Source: Candidatus Limnocylindrales bacterium
GTDB taxonomy: Bacteria; Chloroflexota; Limnocylindria; Limnocylindrales; CSP1-4
Length of the DNA stretch: 64,000 nt
Direction of reading: 5' to 3'
Assembly (NCBI GenBank): GCA_035693125.1
Contig: DASSHB010000039.1
Location: forward strand, 613 to 64,612
The notes beneath the pieces are model-generated. The model had not been told where the DNA came from. It searched no databases and saw only the letters and a program-made list of their open reading frames with translations. The position numbers and the translations under genes are program-made. Position 1 is the first letter of the stretch, and each line of letters begins with the position of its first letter. Below are positions 28,788 to 41,269 of the stretch, piece after piece.

Positions 28788-30113
28788 GTGACCGATCGTT
28801 CCGGTGCGAGCGGCAGCTCGCCGAGCACGCGCCCGACCGCCGCACTGCCGACCTCCGCGCTCGTGCGGATCTCCCTGTTCTGGCTCGGCCTGACCTCGAT
28901 CGACGCGGTCGTCAACGCGGCCGTCCAGTCGCGGATCAAGTTCGAGCACCTGGTCGAACCCGGGACCGAGGGCAGCTCGCTCGCGCTCGTCGCCGTGCTG
29001 ACCTTCGTCTTCAGCGTCGCGATCCAGCCGACCGTCGGCTCGATCTCGGACTACGCCTCGACGCGTTGGGGCCGGCGCAAGCCGTTCATCGTCGGCGGCG
29101 CCCTGTTCGACGCCCTGTTCCTGGTCGGGATCGCGACGGCCAACTCGCTCCTGGCGATCGCCGCCTTCGCGACCCTGCTCGCGCTCTCCACGAACGTCGC
29201 CCGAGGGCCGTTCCAGGGCTACGTCCCGGATCTCGTGCCCGACCGCCAGGTCGGCCTCGCCAGCTCGATGGTCGGGCTCATGCAGGTGCTCGGCAATGTC
29301 GTGGGCTTCGCGCTCGCCTCGCTGGCCGACATCCAGGGCAACGTCGGCCTCGCGATCATCGCCGTCGCCTGCGTCGAGCTCGTCACGATGGCCTCGGTGG
29401 TCCTCCGCGTGCCGAACGGACCCCCGGCCAAGCCGCGCGAGGGCCGGTCATGGGTCGCGATCGCGGCCGAGACGTGGGGAACCGACATCCTCCGCGAGAC
29501 CAGCTACCTGTGGCTCCTCGCTTCGAGGCTGTTCATCCTCATGGGTGGGGCGGCCGTCCTGAACTTCGTGAAGCTCTACCTGGCCGACGTCCACGGCCTC
29601 GATCAGGCGGGGACCGGCGCCGCGTTCCTGAACATGCTCGTCGCCGCGACCGTCGTCAGCCTCCTGGCGATCGTTCCCGCCTCGCGCCTGTCGGATCGGT
29701 TCGGGCGCAAGCCGGTGATCTACGTCTGCACCGGGTTCGGCATCGCGGGCGTGGGCCTGATCGCCGCGGCCCCCGATCTGACCGTCGCGACGCTCGGGGC
29801 CGCGCTGTTCGGTGCCTCGCAGGGAACATTCCTCGCCGTCGATTGGGCGCTGATGACCGACATCATCCCGAAGGCCGCGTCCGGTCGGTACATGGGGCTC
29901 TCGAACGTCGTGACGGCCTCGTCGACCACGATCGCCGTCGCGATCGGCGGCCTCGTCATCGACGCGCTGAACCGCTCCGCGGGGATCGGCACGGGCGAGC
30001 GCGTCGAGCTGACGCTCGGCGTCCTCTACTTCGCGATCGGCGCCGTGGCCCTAGTCCGCGTCCACGAGCCGGACCGGCGCCGGCTGCGCGTGGATGCCGC
30101 CACGGCCGCGTAG
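28788..30113 (+). CDS. MFS transporter
   Basis: The ORF at 28035..30113 carries a low-complexity Arg/Pro N-terminal half that overlaps the GATase gene. The in-frame GTG at 28788 is preceded by GGGGAGGGAGGGG (strong RBS) and yields 441 aa with ~12 TM segments ('RISLFWLGLTSIDAVVNAAVQSRIKFEHLV...'). Confidence 0.7.
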   Translation: MTDRSGASGSSPSTRPTAALPTSALVRISLFWLGLTSIDAVVNAAVQSRIKFEHLVEPGTEGSSLALVAVLTFVFSVAIQPTVGSISDYASTRWGRRKPFIVGGALFDALFLVGIATANSLLAIAAFATLLALSTNVARGPFQGYVPDLVPDRQVGLASSMVGLMQVLGNVVGFALASLADIQGNVGLAIIAVACVELVTMASVVLRVPNGPPAKPREGRSWVAIAAETWGTDILRETSYLWLLASRLFILMGGAAVLNFVKLYLADVHGLDQAGTGAAFLNMLVAATVVSLLAIVPASRLSDRFGRKPVIYVCTGFGIAGVGLIAAAPDLTVATLGAALFGASQGTFLAVDWALMTDIIPKAASGRYMGLSNVVTASSTTIAVAIGGLVIDALNRSAGIGTGERVELTLGVLYFAIGAVALVRVHEPDRRRLRVDAATAA

Positions 30114-30116
30114 TCG

Positions 30117-31109
30117 CTAGTCCGGATCCGCGGCGGCCCCGGCCGAGCCGGCGGTGGGCGGATCGGTGGGGACGGTCCTCCGGCGGTCGTCCGGCGAGCC
30201 GTGCGGCAGCCCCAGCCACGTCCGTGCGCGGCGGATCCGCGAGCGGCGCTCGCGCCGCCACCGCTCGAGCAGTGAGCGCCAGGTCCGCGGTCGGAGCGAG
30301 GCGAACGGATCGGGCTGGCGCCAGAGGACCGGGACGAGCGCCCACAGGAACACGATGTAGTCGAGCCGGAGGGGCCGCCGCCCGAAGCCGAAGAGGGCGG
30401 TCAGCTGGGCGATCGTGCCGGGCAGGGTCGCCAGGCTGAGGGCGATCGACGCGACGAGGAACCCGAGCCCCCACAGCCGGGCCCGCGGCCGGAGGACGAT
30501 CATGAACACGATCGGGACCCACTTCATCCAGCTCGCGATCGCCCACAACGCGCCGGCCAGGATCGGGCCGCTGAACTGGGCGCCCCACAGGAGGAGCGCC
30601 AGGAGCAGGTTGATGTTGCCCGTGTCCAGGTTGGCCCCGAACGGGAAGCCCAGGAGCGCCACGGTGATCGCGGTCGCCAGCGGCCGGCGGCTGTAGGCCC
30701 AGTGGATCGTCCAGAGCAGGCCCAGGATCGTCCCGCCGCGCCAGACGAACCACGCCACGTCCCACGGCATCAGCGCCCAGGGCGCGAACAAGGGGAGCAT
30801 CCACGGCGCGTAGACGTACGGCAGGAACGGCCCCGTGGGCCGGTACGGATCGCCGCCGCCGAGCCAGATCCGGACCGCGGCCCAATAGGCGCGGGCGTCG
30901 GCCCCGGCCGGCTCGCCGCGGGCGACGAGCCCGGCGGCGATGCAGCCGAACGTGATGATCAACAGGGTCATCGCCAGGATCCGGCGCCGGTCCCGAATGC
31001 GGCTGACCTCCTGACGGAGGGCGCGCCGGATCACCGCGTAGCGCCGCCGGTGCGGACTGCCTGACACGTGCGGTGCGACCCCTCGGCTCGCCGCGTCACT
31101 GGTGGTCAT
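30117..31109 (-). CDS. polytopic membrane protein, possibly DUF2029/GT87-like (glycosyltransferase-C fold)
   Basis: Multiple Trp/Leu-rich TM helices ('LLIITFGCIAAGLVA', 'WMLPLFAPWALMPWDVAWFVWRGG', 'NINLLLALLLWGAQF') and a basic C-terminal tail. Family assignment is weak. The start could also be the internal MTLLIITFG. Confidence 0.4.
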   Translation of the reverse strand: MTTSDAASRGVAPHVSGSPHRRRYAVIRRALRQEVSRIRDRRRILAMTLLIITFGCIAAGLVARGEPAGADARAYWAAVRIWLGGGDPYRPTGPFLPYVYAPWMLPLFAPWALMPWDVAWFVWRGGTILGLLWTIHWAYSRRPLATAITVALLGFPFGANLDTGNINLLLALLLWGAQFSGPILAGALWAIASWMKWVPIVFMIVLRPRARLWGLGFLVASIALSLATLPGTIAQLTALFGFGRRPLRLDYIVFLWALVPVLWRQPDPFASLRPRTWRSLLERWRRERRSRIRRARTWLGLPHGSPDDRRRTVPTDPPTAGSAGAAADPD

Positions 31110-31335
31110 CGGGCGTCATTCTCGCACCGGGCCGGGTCGTTTCCGTTCGCCACGGCGATGTCGCTCGCCTCGCGCAGGATCGGTTCGCCGCGGGACGCCA
31201 CGCGACGAACGCCCGCGGGTCGCCGTCGTCGAACCGGGGTGATCGCCGCCGGACGGCCCCGGAGCGGCGCCGGTGCGGCTCGGCGCCCGGAGCGCACGCT
31301 ATCCTTCCCGGGATCAAGCGAGGGAGCGCGCGTCC

Positions 31336-32172
31336 GTGACTGACGGGACCGTCATCATCATCGGCGGGGCCGAGGACAAGGTCCGGGATCGGGTGATCCT
31401 GAACCGGTTCGTCTCGCTGGCTGGCGGACGCGACGCGACGATCGTCGTGATCTCGACGGCGTCGTCAATGGGCACCGAGGCCGGCGAGCGCTACCGCCAG
31501 ATCTTCACGGATCTCGGCGTCACGACGGTCCGGCCGCTCCACGCGGCGACCCGGCCCCAGGCGAACGACGAGAGCGTCGCCTTTGCCCTGCGTGACGCGA
31601 CCGGCGTCTTCCTGACCGGCGGCAATCAGCTGAAGCTTGCCTCGCAGGTCGGCGGGACGCGGCTGGCGGATGCGATGCTCGAGCGGTTCCGACACGGAGC
31701 GGTCATGGCGGGGACCTCCGCCGGCGCGTCGGCGATGTCGAGTCACATGATCGCGTTCGGGGCGTCGGGAGCCACGCCGAAGCACCGGATGGCCCAGATC
31801 GCGGCCGGCCTCGGGATGCTCCCGGGCGTCATCGTCGACCAGCACTTCCAGCAGCGGAACCGGCTGGGCCGGCTGCTTTCGCTGATCGCCCAGAACCCAT
31901 CGCTGCTGGGGCTGGGCGTGGACGAGGACACGGCCGGCGTCGTGGGTCCGGATCACGTGATGGAGGTCATCGGGCGTGGCTCGATCACGGTTGTCGACGG
32001 GTCCGCCTCCGAGACGGACGCCTGGGAGGTTCGCGGCCACAAGCCGCTGATGATCAGCGGCGTCGTGCTCCACTCGCTGCCGAGCGGCTACCGGTTCGAC
32101 CTGCGCCGCCGGCACCGGCTCGCGACGCCGACGCTCCACGCGCTGCCCGGCGGCGAGGCGGCCTCGGGCTGA
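31336..32172 (+). CDS. cphB: cyanophycinase (peptidase S51, CphB)
   Basis: 'VIIIGGAEDKVRDRVILNRF', 'GTSAGASAMSSHMIAFG' (catalytic Ser in GxSAG) and 'VIVDQHFQQRNRLGRLLSLI...LLGLGVDEDTA' align closely with Synechocystis CphB. The GTG at 31336 is preceded by the GAGGGAG RBS. The ORF opens at 31273. Confidence 0.85.
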   Translation: MTDGTVIIIGGAEDKVRDRVILNRFVSLAGGRDATIVVISTASSMGTEAGERYRQIFTDLGVTTVRPLHAATRPQANDESVAFALRDATGVFLTGGNQLKLASQVGGTRLADAMLERFRHGAVMAGTSAGASAMSSHMIAFGASGATPKHRMAQIAAGLGMLPGVIVDQHFQQRNRLGRLLSLIAQNPSLLGLGVDEDTAGVVGPDHVMEVIGRGSITVVDGSASETDAWEVRGHKPLMISGVVLHSLPSGYRFDLRRRHRLATPTLHALPGGEAASG

Positions 32173-32300: not shown

Positions 32301-35234
32301 GTGGCCCGGACCGCACCGCAGCCTCGCGAGAAGAAGGCCGGGTCAGCCGAGCCCGCGGCGACAGGGTCAGCGCCCGGCGCTGCCGCCGGGGCGCCGTTGG
32401 CGGTCGCCAGACCTCGCCGCCGCGCTGCCGACGGTCACGCGAACGGCAGGCGCCCCGAGCCGAGTCTCCGGATCGTCGAGACCCGGATCCTCCGCGGCCC
32501 GAACTACTGGGCTCGCGAGCCGGTCGTCCGGATGGTCGTCGACCTGGGCGTTCTCGAGGAGTTCCCGAGCAACAAGATCCCCGGCTTCACCGATGCCCTC
32601 GTGGGGCTGCTGCCCAGCCTGGAGGATCACGCCTGCTCGCTGGGCCGGCGGGGCGGCTTCATCACGCGGCTCCGCGAAGGGACGTGGGCCGGTCACATCG
32701 CCGAGCACATCGCGCTGGAGCTCCAGAACCTCGCCGGCACCGACGTCCGCCACGGCAAGACCCGCGGGACCGGCGAGACGGGCCGCTACAACGTGATCTA
32801 CGAGTTCCGCGAGGAGACCGTGGGGGTCGAGGCGGGCAAGATCGCGGTGGCCCTCGTCAACCATCTCGTCGCCCCGGACGACGAGGCCATGAACCTGGAC
32901 TTCATGGCCGAGCTGGAGCGCTTGATCCGGCTCGCGGAGCGGGCCGCGTTCGGCCCGAGCACCCAGGCGATCCTCGACGAGGCGGCCTCGCGCGACATCC
33001 CGTACATCCGGCTCGATCGCCATTCGCTCGTCCAGCTCGGACAGGGCGTTCACCAGCAGCGGATCCGGGCCACGATGACCTCGAAGACGTCGGGGATCGC
33101 GGTCGACATCGCGAGCGACAAGAGCCTGACGAACCGGCTCCTCGACTCGGCCGGCCTCCCGGTTCCCAAGAGCGCGGTCACCGACACCGAGGAGGACACG
33201 GTCGCTGCGGCGATCCGGATCGGCTTCCCGTGCGTGGTCAAGCCGCTCGATGGCAACCACGGCCGCGGCGTCCATCTCGACCTGCGCTCGGAGGAGGCGG
33301 TCCGGGCCGCCTTCCACGGGGCGCGCCGCGAGAGCCGGAGCGGCGATCTCGTCGTCGAGAGCTACGTCGCGGGCAACGACTACCGCTGTCTCGTGATCGG
33401 CGGCAAGGTCGCGGCGATCGCCGAGCGGGTCCCGGCCAGCGTGACCGGCGACGGCGAGCACACGATCCGCCAGCTCGTGGACGTGGCGAACGCGGATCCT
33501 CGTCGCGGAATCGGCCACGAGAAGGTCCTGACCCGGATCAAGGTCGACGCGGCCGCCGAGGAGCTCGTCCGCGAGCAGGGCTGGGGGCTGGACGACACGC
33601 CGCCCCCTGGCACGTTCGTGAAGCTCGCCCTGACCGGCAACATGTCGACGGGCGGAACGTCGATCGACCGGACGATCGAGGCCCACCCCGACAACGTCGA
33701 GATCGCCGAGACGGCCGCCCAGATCGTGGGCCTGGACATCGCCGGGATCGACTTCATCTGCCCCGATATCGCGACGCCCGTCCGGGAGACCGGCGGCGCG
33801 ATCGTCGAGGTCAACGCGGCGCCGGGCTTCCGGATGCACACCCACCCGACCGAGGGCGAGCCGCAGTACGTCGCCCGGCCGGTGATCGACGGCCTGTTCC
33901 CGCCGGGGTCCGGGGCCCGGATCCCGATCATCGCGGTGACCGGCACGAACGGGAAGACGACCACGGTCCGGATGATCGCCCACATCCTGAAGCTCAAGGG
34001 TCGGCGCGTCGGGATGACCTCGACGGATGGGATCGTCATCGACGGACGGCTGATCAAGAAGGGCGACATGTCAGGGCCCAGGTCGGCCCAGATGGTCCTC
34101 CAGAACCCGACCGTGGACACCGCGGTGTTCGAAGTCGCCCGGGGCGGGATCCTGCGCGAGGGCCTGGGGTACGACCGCAACGACGTGGCGGTCGTCACGA
34201 ACGTCACCGGCGACCATCTCGGCATCGGCGGGATCAACACGATCGGCCAGCTGGCGAACGTCAAGGCCGTGATCGTGGAGTCCGTGCCGCGCTCCGGGAC
34301 GGCGGTCCTCAACGCCGACGACGGTCACGTCTACCGGATGGGCCGGCACTGCGCCGGGAAGGTCGTCCTGTTCAGCATGTCGACCCAGAAGGGCGAGGAC
34401 GGCTACGACCGGGTCGACGGCCACACGTCGCGAGGCAACGCGGCGTTCGTCCTCCAGCCCGGTCCCGAGGGCGAGCTGATCGTGCTCCGCCACGGCCCGC
34501 GCACGATGCCGGTCCTGTACACCCACCTGATCCCGGCGACGTTCGGCGGGCGGGCCCGGATGAACGTGGCGAACGCGCTGGCGGCGGCGGCCGCGGCCTG
34601 GGCGGCGGGAGCCCACCTCCACGACATCCGCCAAGGGCTCCGCACCTTCTCCACGTCGTTCTTCCAGGCGCCGGGCCGGCTGAACCTCCTGGACGTGGGC
34701 GGGATCCGGGTCGTCATCGACTACTGCCACAACGTCGACGGGATGCGCCAGCTCGCCGACTTCGTGGACCGGATGATGACCGAGCCGCAGTCCAGGGCGG
34801 GCCGGATCGGACCCTCGACGAACGGCCACGCCCGGAGCGGGCGGGCGATCGGCGTGATCGGCATCCCCGGCGACCGGCGCGACGAGGACCAGCACGAGTA
34901 CGGCGCGATCGCGGCGCGCTCGTTCGACGAGATCATCGTGCGCGAGGACAAGAACCTCCGTGGCCGGGCGCCCGGCGTCTCGGCCGGGAACGTGATCGAA
35001 GGGGTGCGCGCGGCCCGGGCGGGTGGCGGCGCGCGAGCCCTCAAGGCCGAGAAGATCCTCGATGAGATCACCGCCGTCCGGGCCGCCCTCCGCCGAGCCG
35101 CGCCGGGCGACCTCGTCGTGTGCTGCGTCGACGAGGCGATCGCGGTCTACCGCGAGGCGATGGCGGCGGCTGGATCCGCGCGCGGCGCCACGGCGTTCGC
35201 CGACCCGGGCGAGCTCGAGGCCCCCGAAGGCTGA
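32301..35234 (+). CDS. cphA: cyanophycin synthetase CphA (L-aspartate- and L-arginine-adding), full N + ATP-grasp (G) + Mur-ligase-like (M) architecture
   Basis: N-domain 'LRIVETRILRGPNYWAREPVVRMVVDLGVLEEFPSNKIPGF'. ATP-grasp 'GFPCVVKPLDGNHGRGVHLDL...VVESYVAGNDYRCLVIGGKVAAIAERVPASVTGDGEHTIRQL'. M-domain P-loop 'IIAVTGTNGKTTTVRM' and 'VVTNVTGDHLG'. The six-frame ORF starts at 32205. The GTG at 32301 has a GGAGGG RBS. Either way there is a 55-87-aa Ala/Pro/Gly-rich N-terminal extension before the conserved N domain, so the start is uncertain. Confidence 0.85.
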   Translation: MARTAPQPREKKAGSAEPAATGSAPGAAAGAPLAVARPRRRAADGHANGRRPEPSLRIVETRILRGPNYWAREPVVRMVVDLGVLEEFPSNKIPGFTDALVGLLPSLEDHACSLGRRGGFITRLREGTWAGHIAEHIALELQNLAGTDVRHGKTRGTGETGRYNVIYEFREETVGVEAGKIAVALVNHLVAPDDEAMNLDFMAELERLIRLAERAAFGPSTQAILDEAASRDIPYIRLDRHSLVQLGQGVHQQRIRATMTSKTSGIAVDIASDKSLTNRLLDSAGLPVPKSAVTDTEEDTVAAAIRIGFPCVVKPLDGNHGRGVHLDLRSEEAVRAAFHGARRESRSGDLVVESYVAGNDYRCLVIGGKVAAIAERVPASVTGDGEHTIRQLVDVANADPRRGIGHEKVLTRIKVDAAAEELVREQGWGLDDTPPPGTFVKLALTGNMSTGGTSIDRTIEAHPDNVEIAETAAQIVGLDIAGIDFICPDIATPVRETGGAIVEVNAAPGFRMHTHPTEGEPQYVARPVIDGLFPPGSGARIPIIAVTGTNGKTTTVRMIAHILKLKGRRVGMTSTDGIVIDGRLIKKGDMSGPRSAQMVLQNPTVDTAVFEVARGGILREGLGYDRNDVAVVTNVTGDHLGIGGINTIGQLANVKAVIVESVPRSGTAVLNADDGHVYRMGRHCAGKVVLFSMSTQKGEDGYDRVDGHTSRGNAAFVLQPGPEGELIVLRHGPRTMPVLYTHLIPATFGGRARMNVANALAAAAAAWAAGAHLHDIRQGLRTFSTSFFQAPGRLNLLDVGGIRVVIDYCHNVDGMRQLADFVDRMMTEPQSRAGRIGPSTNGHARSGRAIGVIGIPGDRRDEDQHEYGAIAARSFDEIIVREDKNLRGRAPGVSAGNVIEGVRAARAGGGARALKAEKILDEITAVRAALRRAAPGDLVVCCVDEAIAVYREAMAAAGSARGATAFADPGELEAPEG

Positions 35235-35244
35235 CCATCCCGTG

Positions 35245-35955
35245 ATGCCTCGCCCCTGGCTGATCCGGATGCGTTGGCTCGACCTGTTGTTCGCCCACTG
35301 GCCCGTCGACCCGGCCCCGCTGGAGCGGCTGATCCCGCCCCAGCTGGAGCTCGACCGGTTCGAGGACCAGGCTTGGCTGGGCATCGTGCCGTTCACGATG
35401 GACGACGTCGCGCCACGCGGTGTGCCGGCGCCGGGCCGCTTCGCGACGTTCCCCGAGCTCAATGTCCGGACCTATGTCCGGCGCCGGGATCGGCCCGCGG
35501 ATCGCGGAGTCTGGTTCCTCAGCCTGGACGCGGCGTCGTGGTCGACGGTGTGGGGCTCGCGGCTCATCTTCCACCTGCCCTACGTCCACGCCCGGATGTC
35601 GTCGCGACGTGACGGCGACGACGTGCTCTACCGATCGGACCGGGACGATGGGCGATGGCCGCCAGTTCGATTCGCAGCACGCTACCGGTCGACGGGGCCG
35701 CCGGCCCTTGCCGAACCGGGGACCTTCGACGAATGGGCGACGAACCGCCTCCGCCTGTTCTCGGTCGACTCGCGCCGGCGGCTCATCCACGGCGACATCG
35801 CCCACACCGCCTGGCCGCTGGAACCCGCGGAGGCCGAGCTCGACGCGGCCGAGCTGGCCGCCTCGCACGGGATCACCTTCCCGGGCTTCGCGCCGCGGCT
35901 CCGGTTCGCTCGCCGCCTCGACGTCCGCGGCTGGCTGCCCGTCCGCTCTCGGTAG
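35245..35955 (+). CDS. DUF2071 (YqjF-family) protein
   Basis: 'WLDLLFAHWPVDPAPLERLIPPQLELDRFEDQAWLGIVPFTMDDV' is the DUF2071 N-terminal signature. The start is 10 bp after the cphA stop, so it is probably co-transcribed. Confidence 0.6.
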   Translation: MPRPWLIRMRWLDLLFAHWPVDPAPLERLIPPQLELDRFEDQAWLGIVPFTMDDVAPRGVPAPGRFATFPELNVRTYVRRRDRPADRGVWFLSLDAASWSTVWGSRLIFHLPYVHARMSSRRDGDDVLYRSDRDDGRWPPVRFAARYRSTGPPALAEPGTFDEWATNRLRLFSVDSRRRLIHGDIAHTAWPLEPAEAELDAAELAASHGITFPGFAPRLRFARRLDVRGWLPVRSR

Positions 35956-36142: not shown

Positions 36143-37927
36143 CTACGCCCGGCGCGGCCGCTCCTGGAGCCGTGGAATCAGCGTCGTCAGCTCGCTGCCG
36201 ACGTCCACCGGACGAGCGCCGAGATCGGCCAAGAGCATGAAGACCTCCTCCCGCTCCTCGTGGCACATCAGGACGATCACCCGGGGCGCGTCGGGCTTCG
36301 CCGCGCCGTCGGCCCGGGCCAGCTCGCCGCGGAGCGCGTCCGTCTCCGAGTCGTACACGGTCACGTCGGCCGTCGATCGTCGAGCCGACGCGATCCCGGC
36401 CAGGATCTCGCCGATCACCGACTCCCGGCTGCGGCCGCGGAGGTACTTCTGCGTCTCCTTGATCGCGACCCGCTGCGCCCGCTGGCCCGCGATCCGGCCG
36501 ATCCCACGGAGGGTGTCGTCCGGCCGATCGCCCGCGGTCCCGATGATCGCCGTGACCGGTGCCGCGCGGCCCGCCGCCCCGCCCGCGATCCCCTCGGCCA
36601 CGTCGAGGACGGCGTTGACCCCGGCCTCGTTGTGGGCGAAGTCGACGATGACGATCCGGGCGCCCAGGCGGAACAGGTTCAGCCGGCCCGGTGAGCGCTC
36701 GGACGAGGGCTGGAAGTCGGCCAGGCCGTCGCGGAGATCGGCGAGCGTCACGCCGAGCCCGCGGGCCGCGCCCGCGGCGGCCAACGCGTTCGCGACGTTG
36801 TGCCGAGCCAGGCCGCCCAGCGTGATCGGCACCCGCTCGACTTCGACGATCCGGTGCTCGACCGGTTCGCCGTCGCGCTCGGCCGCGGCGGAGTGGCCGT
36901 CGATCTCGATCAGCCAGCCGTCGCGGAGGACGTAGCCGCGCCCGCCGCCTGCCACGGCCCGCCGGACGTTCGCGGCGCCACCGGTCCCACCGATCGAGAA
37001 CATCGCGACGTTCGCCCGGACCCGCCGGGAGATCCCGGCAACGAGGGGGTCGTCCCCGTTGAGAACCGCCCAGCCACCTTCGCGGGTGGCCCGCGCGACG
37101 GTCGACTTCACCTCGGCCAGCTCGGGCAGCGTGTGGATCCCCTGGAGGTCCAGGTGATCCGAGCTGACGTTCGTGACGACGCTCGCATCATTCGACTCGT
37201 AGCCCATCCCGCGGAGGACGAGTCCGCCCCGCGCGGTCTCGAGGACGCCGACGTCGAGATCCGATCGTTCGAGGACCTGCCAGGCGCCGCCAGGTCCGGT
37301 CCAGTCGCCCGGCTCGACGAGCCGCTCGTCGACGAGGACGCCATCCGAGGTGGTCGTCCCGACGCGCTTCCCGGCCACCTTGAGGATGTGCGTGATCAGA
37401 CGGGTGACGGTGCTCTTGCCGTTCGTGCCGGTGATCGACACGACCGGGATCCGCCGATCCGCGTCGCGGATCCAGGCCGGCGGCGTGGCACGCGCGTCGG
37501 CGATCCGCGCGGACCAGCGGGCGACCAGCCGCTCCTGGCTCCCCGTCAGGCGAGCTCGGCGAACTGATGACACGTCTCGCTCGGTCAGGGCCAGTGACGC
37601 TTCGGCGATCGTCCGCGCCCGTTCGGCGCCGAGCCATGGCGACGTGACGATCCAGTGGCCCGGGTCGGATGAGCGATGGACGTCGACGCCGCCGCTGCCC
37701 TCGCCGTGATCGGTCCGCAGGCGGCGGATCCAGGCGACGAGCTCGGCGATCGGCTGGGGCCAGTCGCGGGCCGGCACGACGGCGCCGAGATGGACGAGGG
37801 CGTGCCGTCCGGGGCTGCGCTGGCCGTACCACGTCCGGCGCCGCCCGATCGCGACCTCGACCTTCACCACCGGCTCGAGCCGGTAGACGTTGGGGCCTTC
37901 CAGGAGACGGATCTCGATCAGGCGCAC
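36143..37927 (-). CDS. cyanophycin-synthetase-like protein lacking the ATP-grasp domain: CphA-type N-terminal domain fused directly to a Mur-ligase-like (M) domain (~594 aa)
   Basis: The six-frame ORF is 1084 aa (to 39397), but its upstream half is antisense to the M20/ridA genes. The in-frame GTG at 37925-37927 gives 'VRLIEIRLLEGPNVYRLEPVVKVEV...', matching the CphA N-domain opening of 'LRGPNYW'. About 170 aa later comes 'VVSITGTNGKSTVTRLITHILKVAGKRVGTTTSDGVLVDERL...VVTNVSSDHLDLQG...LNGDDPLV', which is near-identical in pattern to the M domain of the cphA in this window. No ATP-grasp segment lies between them. The C-terminal region is CphA-like. Confidence 0.65.
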   Translation of the reverse strand: MRLIEIRLLEGPNVYRLEPVVKVEVAIGRRRTWYGQRSPGRHALVHLGAVVPARDWPQPIAELVAWIRRLRTDHGEGSGGVDVHRSSDPGHWIVTSPWLGAERARTIAEASLALTERDVSSVRRARLTGSQERLVARWSARIADARATPPAWIRDADRRIPVVSITGTNGKSTVTRLITHILKVAGKRVGTTTSDGVLVDERLVEPGDWTGPGGAWQVLERSDLDVGVLETARGGLVLRGMGYESNDASVVTNVSSDHLDLQGIHTLPELAEVKSTVARATREGGWAVLNGDDPLVAGISRRVRANVAMFSIGGTGGAANVRRAVAGGGRGYVLRDGWLIEIDGHSAAAERDGEPVEHRIVEVERVPITLGGLARHNVANALAAAGAARGLGVTLADLRDGLADFQPSSERSPGRLNLFRLGARIVIVDFAHNEAGVNAVLDVAEGIAGGAAGRAAPVTAIIGTAGDRPDDTLRGIGRIAGQRAQRVAIKETQKYLRGRSRESVIGEILAGIASARRSTADVTVYDSETDALRGELARADGAAKPDAPRVIVLMCHEEREEVFMLLADLGARPVDVGSELTTLIPRLQERPRRA

Positions 37928-38027
37928 GGTTCGGGGATCGTACTGCGCCGCCTCGCGCCGTTTCGAGGGCTGTCGCGCCTGCGCGACGAACGCCGTCGTC
38001 ACGTGGTGCGCCGATAGACTTTCGGCG

Positions 38028-39266
38028 ATGGACACCCTGATCGAACCGGGCGCTGGCGTCTCCGACGCGGAGTTGACGGCGCTTCGCGACACGGTGGCCG
38101 CGGCCGAGGCGGAGTACCTCGAGGAGCTCGCCCGGCTCGTCGACACCGACTGCGGCTCGTACACGCCGGCGGGCGTCGACGAGATCGGCCGTTTCGTCGG
38201 GTCCTTCATGGCCGCCGACGGAGCGCGGGTCGAGGTCCGGCCGGACCCCGACGGGCGGCTCGGGGCGACGGTCATCGGGACGTGGGACGGCGCCGCCGGG
38301 ACGGCAGGCGGCCCGCGGATCCTCCTGATCGGCCACATGGACACGGTCTTCGATCCGGGCACCGCCGCGGCTCGACCGTTCGCGATCGATGCAGCGGGCA
38401 TCGCCCGCGGTCCGGGCGTGACGGATATGAAATCGGGACTGCTCGCCGGCCTCCATGCGGTGCGCGCGCTGCGCGCCGCGGGGCCGCTGCCGTTCGAGCG
38501 GCTGACGTTCGTGGCGAACCCCGACGAGGAGATCGGCTCGCCGAGCTCGACCCCCCACATCCGCGAGATCGCGGCGGAATCGGACGTGTGCCTGGTCCTG
38601 GAGTGCGCTCGGGCGAACGGCAACATCGTGTCGTCCCGGAAGGGGATCCTCGACGCTCGCGTGGAGGTCCACGGGCGTGCCGCGCATGCCGGGGTCGAGC
38701 CGGAGAAGGGCCGCTCGGCGATCCTCGCCGCGGCCGATCTGGTGACCCGGCTCCACGCGTTGAACGGGCGCTGGGACGGGGTGACGATCAACGTCGGCGT
38801 GATCGGCGGTGGCACGCGGCCCAACGTCGTCGCCGAGTCCTGCTCGTTCGAGGTCGATCTGCGGGCCGTCCGCCGCGCCGATCTCGAGGCAGCCGAGGCC
38901 GTCATCCGCGCCGAGCTGAGGCGGCTCGCCGTGCCCGACACGACTGCCGAGCTGACCGAGATGGCGCGATGGTGGCCGATGGAGAAGCTCGAACGGTCCG
39001 GCCGGCTCGTCGACCATGCCGAGGCGGTCGCCCGCCGGCTCGGCTTCGAGATCCACGACCAGGCCACCGGCGGCGCATCGGACGCGAACACGACCGCCGG
39101 GATGGGCGTCCCCTCGATCGACGGACTGGGCCCGATCGGCGGACGGGACCACTCGCCCGCGGAATACCTGGAGGTCGCCTCGATCGTGCCGCGGACCGCG
39201 CTGCTCGCCGGGCTGCTCGCCGCGATCGGGCGCGACCCGGCCGTCCTGGGCTGGCGCGCCGGGTGA
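38028..39266 (+). CDS. M20-family metallopeptidase (glutamate carboxypeptidase / dipeptidase-like)
   Basis: 'ILLIGHMDTVF', 'GVTDMKSGL', 'NPDEEIGSPSS' and 'HGRAAHAGVEPEKGRSAI' are the M20 metal-binding and catalytic blocks. The ATG at 38028 (MDTLIEPGAG) is used. The ORF upstream from 37890 is junk. It is divergent from the CphA-like gene, with a 100-bp intergenic region. Confidence 0.75.
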   Translation: MDTLIEPGAGVSDAELTALRDTVAAAEAEYLEELARLVDTDCGSYTPAGVDEIGRFVGSFMAADGARVEVRPDPDGRLGATVIGTWDGAAGTAGGPRILLIGHMDTVFDPGTAAARPFAIDAAGIARGPGVTDMKSGLLAGLHAVRALRAAGPLPFERLTFVANPDEEIGSPSSTPHIREIAAESDVCLVLECARANGNIVSSRKGILDARVEVHGRAAHAGVEPEKGRSAILAAADLVTRLHALNGRWDGVTINVGVIGGGTRPNVVAESCSFEVDLRAVRRADLEAAEAVIRAELRRLAVPDTTAELTEMARWWPMEKLERSGRLVDHAEAVARRLGFEIHDQATGGASDANTTAGMGVPSIDGLGPIGGRDHSPAEYLEVASIVPRTALLAGLLAAIGRDPAVLGWRAG

Positions 39267-39652
39267 GCGGGCGGCAGCTCGTGTCGAGTGGCGGCCCGTA
39301 CGAGGCGGCCTACGGCTACAGCCGCGCCGTGGCCGTCGGCGACGGCTGCTGGGTCGCCGGCACGACCGACGCCGGGCCGGACGGTCGATCCACCCACGCG
39401 GGCGACGCGGCCGGCCAGGCGCGGGCCGCGTTCGGGATCGCCATCCGGGCCCTCGCGGACGCGGGGTTCCGGAGCGAGGAGGTCGTCCGGGTCCGGATGT
39501 ACGTGGTCCGGGCGGAGGATGCGACGGCCGTCGCCGGCGTCAACGGCGAGCTGTTCGGGTCGATCCGGCCCGCCGCCACCCTCGTCCGCGTGGCCGGGTT
39601 GATCGATCCGTCGCTCCTCGTCGAGGTCGAGCTCGAGGCGCGCCGCGCCTGA
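39263..39652 (+). CDS. RidA/YjgF-family reactive-intermediate deaminase
   Basis: 'SSGGPYEAAYGYSRAV...' (the GPY motif) and the C-terminal 'RPAATLVRVAGLIDPSLLVEVELEA' are typical of RidA. The GTG at 39263 overlaps the M20 stop (GTGA). An alternative GTG is at 39281. Confidence 0.65.
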   Translation: MSGRQLVSSGGPYEAAYGYSRAVAVGDGCWVAGTTDAGPDGRSTHAGDAAGQARAAFGIAIRALADAGFRSEEVVRVRMYVVRAEDATAVAGVNGELFGSIRPAATLVRVAGLIDPSLLVEVELEARRA

Positions 39653-40004: not shown

Positions 40005-40334
40005 CTACTCCCAACCGGCTCCGCGGCCGGCGATCGCGATGATGACCGCAACGAGCAGGCCGAGGAAGAGGTTCCGCCGCCAGGCGACGAGCGCGATGCA
40101 GGCCCCGACTGCCAGCCACGGCAGGCCGACGACGACGAGGGATTGGCCGTTCCGTGTCTGGACGACGGTGTTGACGGTCGCGAGCGAGGCCAGGACGGCA
40201 GGTCCCACCAGCTGGAGATAGGCCAGGGCGCGCCGCGGCAGCCGGTCGATCGCCGGGTTCAGGAGGCCGATCGCCCGCGAGGGATAGGTCACCGCCCACA
40301 TCACGACGGCGAGCGGGACGAGGTCGGTGCTCAC
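40005..40334 (-). CDS. azlD: AzlD-family branched-chain amino acid transport protein (small subunit)
   Basis: The real product starts at the GTG at 40332-40334 (VSTDLVPLAVVMWAVTYPSRAIGLL..., ~109 aa, three to four TM). This overlaps the azlC stop (GTGA). The long ORF to 40724 is Arg/Gly-rich junk. Confidence 0.65.
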   Translation of the reverse strand: MSTDLVPLAVVMWAVTYPSRAIGLLNPAIDRLPRRALAYLQLVGPAVLASLATVNTVVQTRNGQSLVVVGLPWLAVGACIALVAWRRNLFLGLLVAVIIAIAGRGAGWE

Positions 40335-41269
40335 GACGGTCGGCCGCGGTCGTCGGTCGGGTGATCGTGGACCACTCCGGGCATCCCGAAGCGCTCGGCC
40401 GAGGCCTCGGTCCCGAGGGGCGCGGTCTCGCGCGCGGCAGCCTCGGGGACGAGCAGGCCCGCGAGCGGACCCGCGATGCCCCCCGCGATCACCCCGATCG
40501 TCGGATCCCACGCGACGGAGGCCGCGACCCCGATGACGCCCCCGGCGATGGCCGCGACCAGCTCGCGCCGCCCGGTCAGCAGGGTGACGGCGAGGCCGCC
40601 CATCGCGGCGGGGAAGATCACGTCGATGCCGAGCGCCTTCGGATCCACGACGGCGCCACCGAGCATCACCCCGGCGAACGTCGCCACGTTCCACGGGATC
40701 AGCGTCGTGACGATCGCCGCCCACCAGTAGCCGAAGCCATCGAACCGGCCGATCCGCCGGAAATGGGCGATCGTCAGCGCGAACGCCTCATCCGTGAGGA
40801 GGTGGGCGGCGACGGCCCGCTCCACGAACGAGCGACCCCGGAACCACGGGGCCATGGCCGCGGAGTACAGCACGTGGCGGGCGTTGAGCAGGAGCGTGAA
40901 GAGCGCGATCGCCGGCCAGCCGAGACCGCGCGCCACGAACCCGACGGCCGCGAACTGGGCCGCGCCCGCGAACGCCACCAGGCTGAACGCCATCGCCTCG
41001 AGCGGCGAGAAGCCGGCGCTGGTCCGCGCGGTCAGCCCGAAGACGAAGCCGAAGCCGGCCGCGCTGACGACGATCCCGAGGCCGTCGATGACCAGCTGGC
41101 GCCGAGAGGCGCGGAGATCGCCCGCGCCGCCCGCTGCGGGATCGGTCAGCGGAGGAAGGTCTTGGCGCAGGTTCCGTCGCAGACGACGAACAGGGCGTGC
41201 TTGTCCAGGGCGTAGCCGGCCACGTGGAGCAGGCCGGGACAGCCCGTCGTGGGGCATTTCCAGACCCAC
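40331..41269 (-). CDS. azlC: AzlC-family branched-chain amino acid permease (large subunit); start uncertain
   Basis: 'LVIDGLGIVVSAAGFGFVFGLTARTSAGFSPLEAMAFSLVAFAGAAQFAAVGFV' matches the AzlC N-terminal region. The M1 (41269) and M5 starts would overlap the small ORF at 41146..41418 by ~120 bp. I found no ATG/GTG/TTG between residues 41 and 65. Confidence 0.6.
   Translation of the reverse strand: MGLEMPHDGLSRPAPRGRLRPGQARPVRRLRRNLRQDLPPLTDPAAGGAGDLRASRRQLVIDGLGIVVSAAGFGFVFGLTARTSAGFSPLEAMAFSLVAFAGAAQFAAVGFVARGLGWPAIALFTLLLNARHVLYSAAMAPWFRGRSFVERAVAAHLLTDEAFALTIAHFRRIGRFDGFGYWWAAIVTTLIPWNVATFAGVMLGGAVVDPKALGIDVIFPAAMGGLAVTLLTGRRELVAAIAGGVIGVAASVAWDPTIGVIAGGIAGPLAGLLVPEAAARETAPLGTEASAERFGMPGVVHDHPTDDRGRPS

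Follow-up and report, generated by a model that had tools for sequence, protein, structure and literature searches.

What reaction is left to a paralog of cyanophycin synthetase that has no domain for building the backbone of the polymer? In the current picture, cyanophycin is made by one three-domain enzyme, CphA1 (domains N, G and M), which alternates backbone and side-chain steps at the chain end, and the only known reduced form is, to our knowledge, CphA2, which has backbone activity only. The question is raised by a gene on the minus strand of a 64,000-nucleotide stretch of DNA (hereafter the window, meaning the whole stretch analysed) from Candidatus Limnocylindrales bacterium (GenBank assembly GCA_035693125.1, contig DASSHB010000039.1, positions 613 to 64,612). 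The gene encodes a protein in which a CphA-type N domain is joined directly to a Mur-ligase M domain (the N-M protein), and it represents a conserved, uncharacterised family of CphA paralogs without a G domain. We put the probability that the N-M protein is a stand-alone side-chain ligase acting on cyanophycin-related chains at roughly 0.55. The gene and its parts, and the cphA1 gene of the same window, are located as follows.

36143..37927, minus strand: whole gene of the N-M protein, a G-less CphA paralog of 594 aa with a GTG start at 37927.
37568..37927, minus strand: N domain (aa 1 to ~120), predicted CphA-type fold without the Cx19HxxEH zinc site.
37877..37897, minus strand: loop G11-P12-N13-V14-Y15-R16-L17, equivalent of GPNYWSI in SuCphA1 (Y14, I17).
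37454..37567, minus strand: linker (aa 121–158), one helix with a PPxWIRDxxRR motif, in place of the 326-aa G domain.
36698..37453, minus strand: Mcore (aa 159 to ~410), ATP-binding Mur ligase middle domain (Pfam PF08245, TIGR02068, PDB 7lg5).
37409..37429, minus strand: P-loop G167-T-N-G-K171-S-T173, aligned with TeCphA1 P-loop residues 495–501.
36203..36697, minus strand: Mlid (aa ~411–575), Mur ligase C-terminal domain, with PGR415, H432, GDR468 and K490-E-T-Q-K-Y-L-R-G-R499.
36143..36202, minus strand: C-terminal tail (aa 576–594, ELTxLxPRLQxRPRR) and stop, conserved in the Limnocylindria clade only.
32301..35234, plus strand: cphA1, full length (N-G-M, with Cx19HxxEH), convergent with the N-M gene; TIGR02068 1132.8 bits against a cutoff of 850.

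An earlier interpretation made from the letters of the DNA alone (the sequence-only reading) had proposed that no ATP-grasp domain separates the N and M domains, and the structure, profile and Pfam results bear this out. Pfam found no ATP-grasp family in the N-M protein at E ≤ 0.1, whereas the same search matched eight ATP-grasp-type families in the window CphA1. With the first residue of the N domain as origin, the distance to the P-loop is 164 aa in the N-M protein and 490 aa in the window CphA1, and the difference of 326 aa equals the length of the G domain of TeCphA1 (residues 162–487; PMC9427784). The early P-loop claimed for the N-M protein (~170 aa) is indeed where ITGTNGKST begins, at residue 165 (P-loop aa 165–173); the ~570 aa given for CphA1 was slightly off, VTGTNGKTT beginning at residue 546 of 977 aa. 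A hidden or divergent ATP-grasp domain is excluded, as the secondary structure of the N-domain model leaves only ~40 residues, including one helix, between the N core and the P-loop, and Pfam detects nothing there. The N-M protein therefore lacks a G domain, and with that domain absent we expect no backbone extension or synthesis by this protein.

What remains next to the N domain is a complete M domain of the CphA1 kind. A pairwise alignment with the window CphA1, proposed as a check by the sequence-only reading, gave by BLASTP 39% identity over 370 aa in the M domain (E 2e-62) and 38% identity where residues 1–40 of the N-M protein align with the beginning of the N domain of CphA1 (E 1e-5). 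Three of the M-domain motifs said to be shared, VVTNV..DHL, VLN.DD and PGRLNL, are exact in both proteins; two others hold only approximately, the region described as 'TSDG.V.D.RL' reading TTSDGVLVDERL in the N-M protein and TSTDGIVIDGRL in the window CphA1, and that described as 'ETARGG.LR.G.GY' reading ETARGGLVLRGMGY and EVARGGILREGLGY, respectively. The best sequence matches in the PDB were CphA1 structures (7LG5, E 1.1e-68, residues 485–842). The cyanophycin synthetase model TIGR02068 scored 366.7 bits (cutoff 850) over residues 155–540, covering profile positions 474–839 only, and NF010623 scored 312.1 bits, below its cutoff of 877. Pfam Mur_ligase_M (PF08245) matched aa 165–388 with 75.3 bits (gathering score 24); Mur_ligase_C (PF02875) reached 26.0 bits against a gathering score of 28.4 in the N-M protein and 49.1 bits in the family member at locus L090, and precomputed matches to it are recorded for most close relatives. 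These scores bear on an alternative that we consider unlikely, though by no means negligible, namely that the protein works as a Mur-type amide ligase on something unrelated to cyanophycin, for example a small-molecule or peptide carboxylate, and that its N domain is no more than a structural cap. Against it, the 366.7 bits of the cyanophycin synthetase model compare with at most 105.8 bits for any Mur, FolC or PgsB model, and CphA-specific motifs such as GD.[ST]GP are kept.

Taking the ATP- and Mg-binding residues of TeCphA1 as reference (PMC9427784), we found that K499, T500, N497 and T522 correspond to K171, S172, N169 and S194 of the N-M protein, and E558, R731, H748 and F692 to E230, R415, H432 and H376. 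Conservation across 41 diverse family members is 90% or higher for N169, K171, E230, H376, R415 and H432; S172 and S194 are Ser in some members and Thr in others, and H376 of the N-M protein lies within the canonical Mur G..HN..N..A motif. With catalytic residues kept or conservatively substituted, the M domain is predicted to be catalytically competent. What is conserved suggests that a carboxylate is activated with ATP and then converted into an amide: ATP would turn a carboxylate into an acyl-phosphate, as in the M domain of CphA1, and an amide bond would then form with the alpha-amino group of the incoming amino acid, arginine or another.

The same residues argue against a role without catalysis, in which the protein would attach to CphA1 or to cyanophycin granules as a partner or regulator, much like the inactive M domain of CphA2 or second copies of cphA whose active sites are degenerate. 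The nearness of cphA1 and the retained domain-contact loop of the N domain would suit such a role, for which CphA2, with CphA domains turned purely structural, offers a precedent (PMC10273328). Nevertheless, all of the ATP-, Mg- and phosphate-binding residues checked are conserved across the family, and the M and N domains are under equally strong purifying selection, which is not expected of a dead enzyme, and hence we hold a non-catalytic role to be highly improbable. The dN/dS ratios calculated from 21 orthologues, 0.21 (N domain), 0.26 (linker), 0.27 (M domain) and 0.29 (tail), show purifying selection on the gene.

For the N-terminal domain, structure comparison provided the decisive test. 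An AlphaFold model of aa 1–159 computed from 129 sequences (pLDDT 89.8, pTM 0.85), the usable model being the one built on a more diverse alignment, was compared by Foldseek with 350,542 PDB chains; the top 15 were CphA1 or CphA2 chains (E 5e-4 to 0.14, TM 0.41–0.61), followed by LuxS, M16 peptidases and RNA-polymerase alpha-like subunits, folds to which the CphA1 N domain was earlier likened. As modelled, the N-terminal fold is therefore of CphA type. Profile–profile comparison of the N domains with hhalign was collinear over 118–119 columns; with shallow alignments it gave a probability of 62%, suggestive at most, and with the second subfamily described below and more CphA1 sequences 90.7% (E 1.2e-6). 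The best conserved element common to both N domains is the loop GPN[VY][YW]x[LI], of which G11, P12 and N13 are invariant in the family alignments. In SuCphA1, Y14 and I17 of this hydrophobic loop pack the N domain on the M domain (PMC9262961). Retention of the loop is what would be expected if N and M still form a single substrate-binding unit, and we infer that they have been retained as such. The family has in addition conserved N-domain residues of its own (E5, R7, K22, E24, H91 and W98).

The N-M protein is not an isolated case, its gene being present in the genomes of at least 390 Limnocylindria species. A pattern scan with one genome per GTDB species recovered 390 loci, and the best 80 of these are almost all from metagenome-assembled genomes of Limnocylindria/Chloroflexota, with two labelled Methylomirabilota and Verrucomicrobiia. 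A faint match to short fragments from Thermomicrobiales led, through a scan of metagenome contigs, to 75 loci of a second and much more diverse G-less subfamily. Its 42 complete ORFs (519–571 aa) start with MxLVEIRDLDGPNLFLLQPAIKLE, place the P-loop at residues 133–180, which leaves too little space for a G domain, and are 35–42% identical to the N-M protein of the window from end to end (E 1e-81 to 1e-111); a protein search with a divergent member as query returned only Limnocylindria fragments. The traits common to the family, all found in the protein studied here, are the start EIRxLxGPN...PxxKxE, H91 and W98, a P-loop at aa ~133–180, the motif K[ED]T..YLRGR, a length of 519–630 aa and the absence of an ATP-grasp domain. 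Members of the second subfamily lack the C-terminal tail, which is nearly invariant in the Limnocylindria clade. Among the metagenomic representative proteins of the family, many are frame-shifted chimeras in which correct stretches alternate with Arg/Pro-rich out-of-frame ones, likely the product of indel errors in long-read assemblies of a high-GC lineage, and the apparent diversity of the family is inflated by them.

In a neighbor-joining tree of M domains (midpoint-rooted, without bootstrap or outgroup), the root separates all N-M proteins from all CphA1 proteins, that of Synechocystis among them, so that on this tree the N-M M domains form a clade separate from the sampled CphA1 M domains. 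The M domain of the N-M protein is 38.6% identical to that of its own CphA1 and 40.4% identical to that of Synechocystis CphA1, and those two CphA1 proteins share 45%. These near-equal distances indicate an old paralog family, and we reject the view that the gene is a recent deletion derivative of the adjacent cphA1. As a related evolutionary reading, the N-M arrangement may be ancestral, with CphA1 having arisen by insertion of the ATP-grasp domain between N and M. Neither Pfam nor NCBIfam has a curated model for the N domain of the protein or for the N-M family as a whole, and the searchable literature, including a bioinformatics survey of cyanophycin genes (PMC10206079), does not mention a G-less form of CphA; literature matches for 'cphA3' are beta-lactamases. 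The databases name the protein 'cyanophycin synthetase' (JGI) or 'Mur ligase family protein' (NCBI), annotations that mislead both ways.

Is the reading frame itself correct? The ORF has 594 codons plus a stop, begins V/M-RLIEIRLLEGPNVYRLEPVV and matches at 100% the entry 'Mur ligase family protein [Candidatus Limnocylindrales bacterium]'; a longer ORF of 1084 aa encloses it on the same strand. The features that bear on this point are the following.

37937..37942, minus strand: -10-like box TACGAT (TANNNT type; TATCCT in relatives), 9 nt upstream of the GTG of the N-M gene.
38015..38020, plus strand: -10-like box TAGACT, 7 nt upstream of the ATG of the divergent M20 gene.
38028..39266, plus strand: M20 peptidase gene, glutamate-carboxypeptidase-like, divergent neighbour, scoring below equivalog cutoffs.

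The existence of the long ORF leaves room for an artefact, that is, a mis-called start within it or a decaying remnant of a cphA duplication, and the sequence-only reading had itself raised a true start far upstream as a concern. We rejected a 1084-aa protein as a shadow ORF typical of high-GC DNA (the window has a G+C content of ~72%): the additional 490 aa upstream have no Pfam match and run antisense to the well-supported M20 gene, orthologues elsewhere begin at the same start residue, and in an alignment of 27 intergenic regions (the window and 26 related loci) conservation begins at the -10-like box 9 nt before the GTG in all 27. The start and its promoter box being conserved in the 26 related loci, intact orthologues being present in 390 species-level genomes and dN/dS being ~0.25, an artefact is effectively refuted. 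Neither the N-M gene nor the M20 gene is preceded by a Shine-Dalgarno sequence, and the TANNNT boxes close to both starts suggest leaderless transcripts; the mRNA of the N-M gene is probably leaderless. Since each gene has its own box close by, the two genes, whose start codons are ~100 bp apart, appear to share a compact divergent promoter region.

The surroundings of the gene point to a connection with cyanophycin metabolism. In the window cphA1 follows cphB:

31273..32172, plus strand: cphB (cyanophycinase), TIGR02069 266.2 bits against a cutoff of 126.6.

The window CphA1 (977 aa) has a GTG start at 32301 with AGGAGG 5 nt upstream. Its conserved N domain is preceded by a low-complexity N-terminal extension of ~55 aa (32301–32465) in which Ala, Pro, Arg and Gly abound, and the protein keeps Cx19HxxEH (C...HIAEH), so that it is predicted to be of the primer-independent type. 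Of the 54 Limnocylindria loci whose downstream sequence extends to 10.4 kb or more, 49 have a cphA1 gene downstream of the N-M gene and convergent with it, the median gap being ~1.1 kb. In the second subfamily, eight distinct loci have cphA1 and cphB within 1–3 kb, either convergent or in the co-directional order N-M > cphB > cphA1; these loci belong to at least three separate N-M subclades, their CphA1 proteins group likewise in the tree, and the cphA1-linked members are scattered over the N-M tree. The link of N-M genes to cyanophycin genes is therefore recurrent and old, although not obligatory in the immediate neighbourhood. The recurrence of this linkage in at least four separate N-M subclades, including operon-like order, also argues against a ligase with an unrelated substrate. 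The CphA-type scaffold, together with this context, points to a cyanophycin-type acceptor, and the N-M protein would then take chains made by the CphA1 next to it and add, complete or vary their side chains. Intact catalytic residues, a retained N-domain loop that contacts M, and linkage to cphA1-cphB in several subclades together make side-chain-only ligation on a preformed poly-Asp or cyanophycin chain, as first suggested from the sequence, plausible.

Several observations, which we gather here, weigh against this assignment. With respect to the N domain, Pfam and NCBIfam gave no match to it (PF18921 begins downstream of the GPN motif), an HMM of it found no CphA match among PDB sequences, and phmmer with aa 1–159 against 1.8 billion representatives returned 145 matches, nearly all of them members or fragments of the same family and many frame-shifted, and none can be recognised as the N domain of a CphA1. 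The N-M protein lacks both the zinc site and the residues described as binding cyanophycin in the N domain of CphA1, its sequence containing neither HxxEH nor an equivalent Cys; in most CphA1 proteins it is the Cx19HxxEH zinc site that gives the N domain its primer-generating endopeptidase activity (PMC9262961). The full-length AlphaFold model, computed from 60 close homologues, is of low confidence (pLDDT 66, N domain <50) and was left out of all conclusions. With respect to the M domain, the N-M family has K[ED]T..YLRGR where CphA1 has [KR]ED.N.RGR, a segment that we take to be the equivalent of the amino-acid-binding DNPR motif of MurE; it has GDYTGP.GA.R where CphA1 has GDMSGP.SAQ, and most members no longer have D523. 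Where CphA1 has D801, the family has an invariant Thr/Ser, with an additional Tyr inserted at what is presumed to be the amino-acid site. These systematic differences close to the substrate suggest that the acceptor or the incoming amino acid may differ from that of CphA1; with the amino-acid-site motif unlike that of CphA1, arginine is not assured, and its assignment as the residue added can only be tentative, a little less probable than its converse. With respect to the neighbourhood, the tightest neighbour in Limnocylindria is the M20 peptidase, which adjoins the N-M gene in 78 of 82 loci, and not cphA1, and in at least seven long loci from the second subfamily there is no cphA1 for ~6–8 kb, the order being instead parB / Rce1-like membrane protease / N-M / moaA.

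Much of this would fit the amide ligase with a substrate unrelated to cyanophycin, which in Limnocylindria would form a synthesis/hydrolysis pair with the divergent M20 amidohydrolase and RidA. In favour of that alternative are the adjacent M20 gene with its back-to-back -10 boxes, the variable spacing between the N-M gene and cphA1 with unrelated genes inserted (DUF2071, a beta-lactamase-family gene or an ABC transporter), the second-subfamily loci without cphA1 nearby and the CphA1-unlike motif at the position of the incoming amino acid in Mur ligases. In the second subfamily, however, M20 is unlinked, and it cannot, then, define the function of the family. M20 is a possible functional partner of the N-M protein in Limnocylindria only, where it might be the beta-Asp-Arg or side-chain hydrolase that these genomes otherwise lack.

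The altered amino-acid site has also to be set against the idea of a self-sufficient iterative ligase that, like PgsB or folylpolyglutamate synthase (FPGS), builds its own isopeptide chain, for example by repeated addition of Asp or Glu to a side-chain carboxyl. PgsB and FPGS have the Mur ligase fold and polymerise without an ATP-grasp partner, both match the N-M protein weakly, and the change of D801 to Thr/Ser with the inserted Tyr would suit a non-basic incoming substrate. But the similarity to PgsB and FolC is limited to the P-loop, partners resembling PgsC or PgsA were not seen in the loci examined, and no data point directly to polymerisation, which leaves this a very improbable account. 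A further reading, improbable but somewhat less so, treats the N-M proteins as an autonomous enzyme class and not as helpers of CphA1: they might charge poly-Asp with amino-acid side chains without backbone synthesis, with stripping by M20 in Limnocylindria, or make a distinct isopeptide product from a non-arginine substrate. If charging and stripping were paired in this way, nitrogen could be stored and released without the poly-Asp backbone being depolymerised.

Other features of the neighbourhood are recorded here. A RidA-family gene (39260–39652, plus strand) follows M20 in the window and in the loci examined. Between cphA1 and the N-M gene lies a DUF2071 gene (35245–35955, plus strand; PF09844, weakly acetoacetate-decarboxylase-like), found at that position in 27 of 82 loci and replaced elsewhere by a beta-lactamase-family gene or polyamine-type ABC permeases. 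Further neighbours (40005–41269, minus strand; 28800–30113, plus strand; 30117–31109, minus strand) are an AzlC/AzlD branched-chain amino-acid exporter pair, an MFS transporter and a GT87-like membrane protein, and the order AzlCD-RidA-M20-N-M is kept in loci L001 and L002. In the second subfamily (L083, L090, L103, L121, L127, L146 and L150), a gene for a Rce1-like (CPBP) membrane protease of ~305–330 aa lies directly upstream of the N-M gene on the same strand, and parB and RF-2 are often near this pair, with or without cphA1-cphB downstream. No Rfam family reached its gathering score in the window (1–64000).

Should the N-M protein prove to be a side-chain ligase for cyanophycin-related chains, side-chain ligation would be separable from backbone growth in nature. 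Possible roles include the repair or completion of under-arginylated polymer, the incorporation of other amino acids and a cycle of side-chain loading. Proteins of this kind would offer a small (~55–65 kDa) module for studying and engineering the M reaction and for tailoring the composition of cyanophycin, and the family would mark uncharacterised nitrogen-storage biology in abundant soil and freshwater Chloroflexota.

Among known systems, CphA1 (TIGR02068; PDB 7LG5, 7WAC, 7LGM and 7LGN) resembles the N-M protein in the fold of its N domain, in the GPN loop that docks N on M, in an M domain (Mcore and Mlid) that is 39–40% identical and in the motifs ETARGG, N..DH, PGR, D..HN, GDR.D and RGR, and its gene often adjoins that of the N-M protein. 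Unlike the N-M protein, which is 326 aa short by comparison and far below the TIGR02068 cutoff, CphA1 has the ATP-grasp G domain, 83% of CphA1 proteins have the primer-generating Cx19HxxEH zinc site, where the N-M protein is ~16 residues shorter, and the motifs at presumed substrate sites are distinct. With MurC–F, and MurE in particular, the N-M protein has in common the middle and C-terminal domains (PF08245 and PF02875), the P-loop, the G..HN..N..A motif with H376 and, as judged from conserved residues, presumably the acyl-phosphate chemistry. MurC–F, however, have a UDP-MurNAc-binding N-terminal domain in place of the CphA-type one, and their models fall well short of their cutoffs of 257–373 bits, the best of them, MurE NF001126, giving 105.8 bits against 373 over profile positions 96–428 only. 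PgsB/CapB and FolC/FPGS are Mur-fold ligases that stand alone, as the N-M protein does, and attach amino acids to a carboxylate with no ATP-grasp partner, the activity also predicted for the N-M protein; PgsB and FolC match it in the P-loop region only (31–39 bits) and differ in partners and N-terminal regions. CphA2 (PDB 7TA5 and 8FXH) is a reduced paralog that polymerises beta-Asp-Arg, its G domain being active and its M domain truncated (PMC10273328). The N-M protein is its mirror image, CphA2 having kept G with M truncated and inactive and the N-M protein having a full M and no G, and a family made of an N domain and a side-chain ligase would be the missing counterpart of CphA2.

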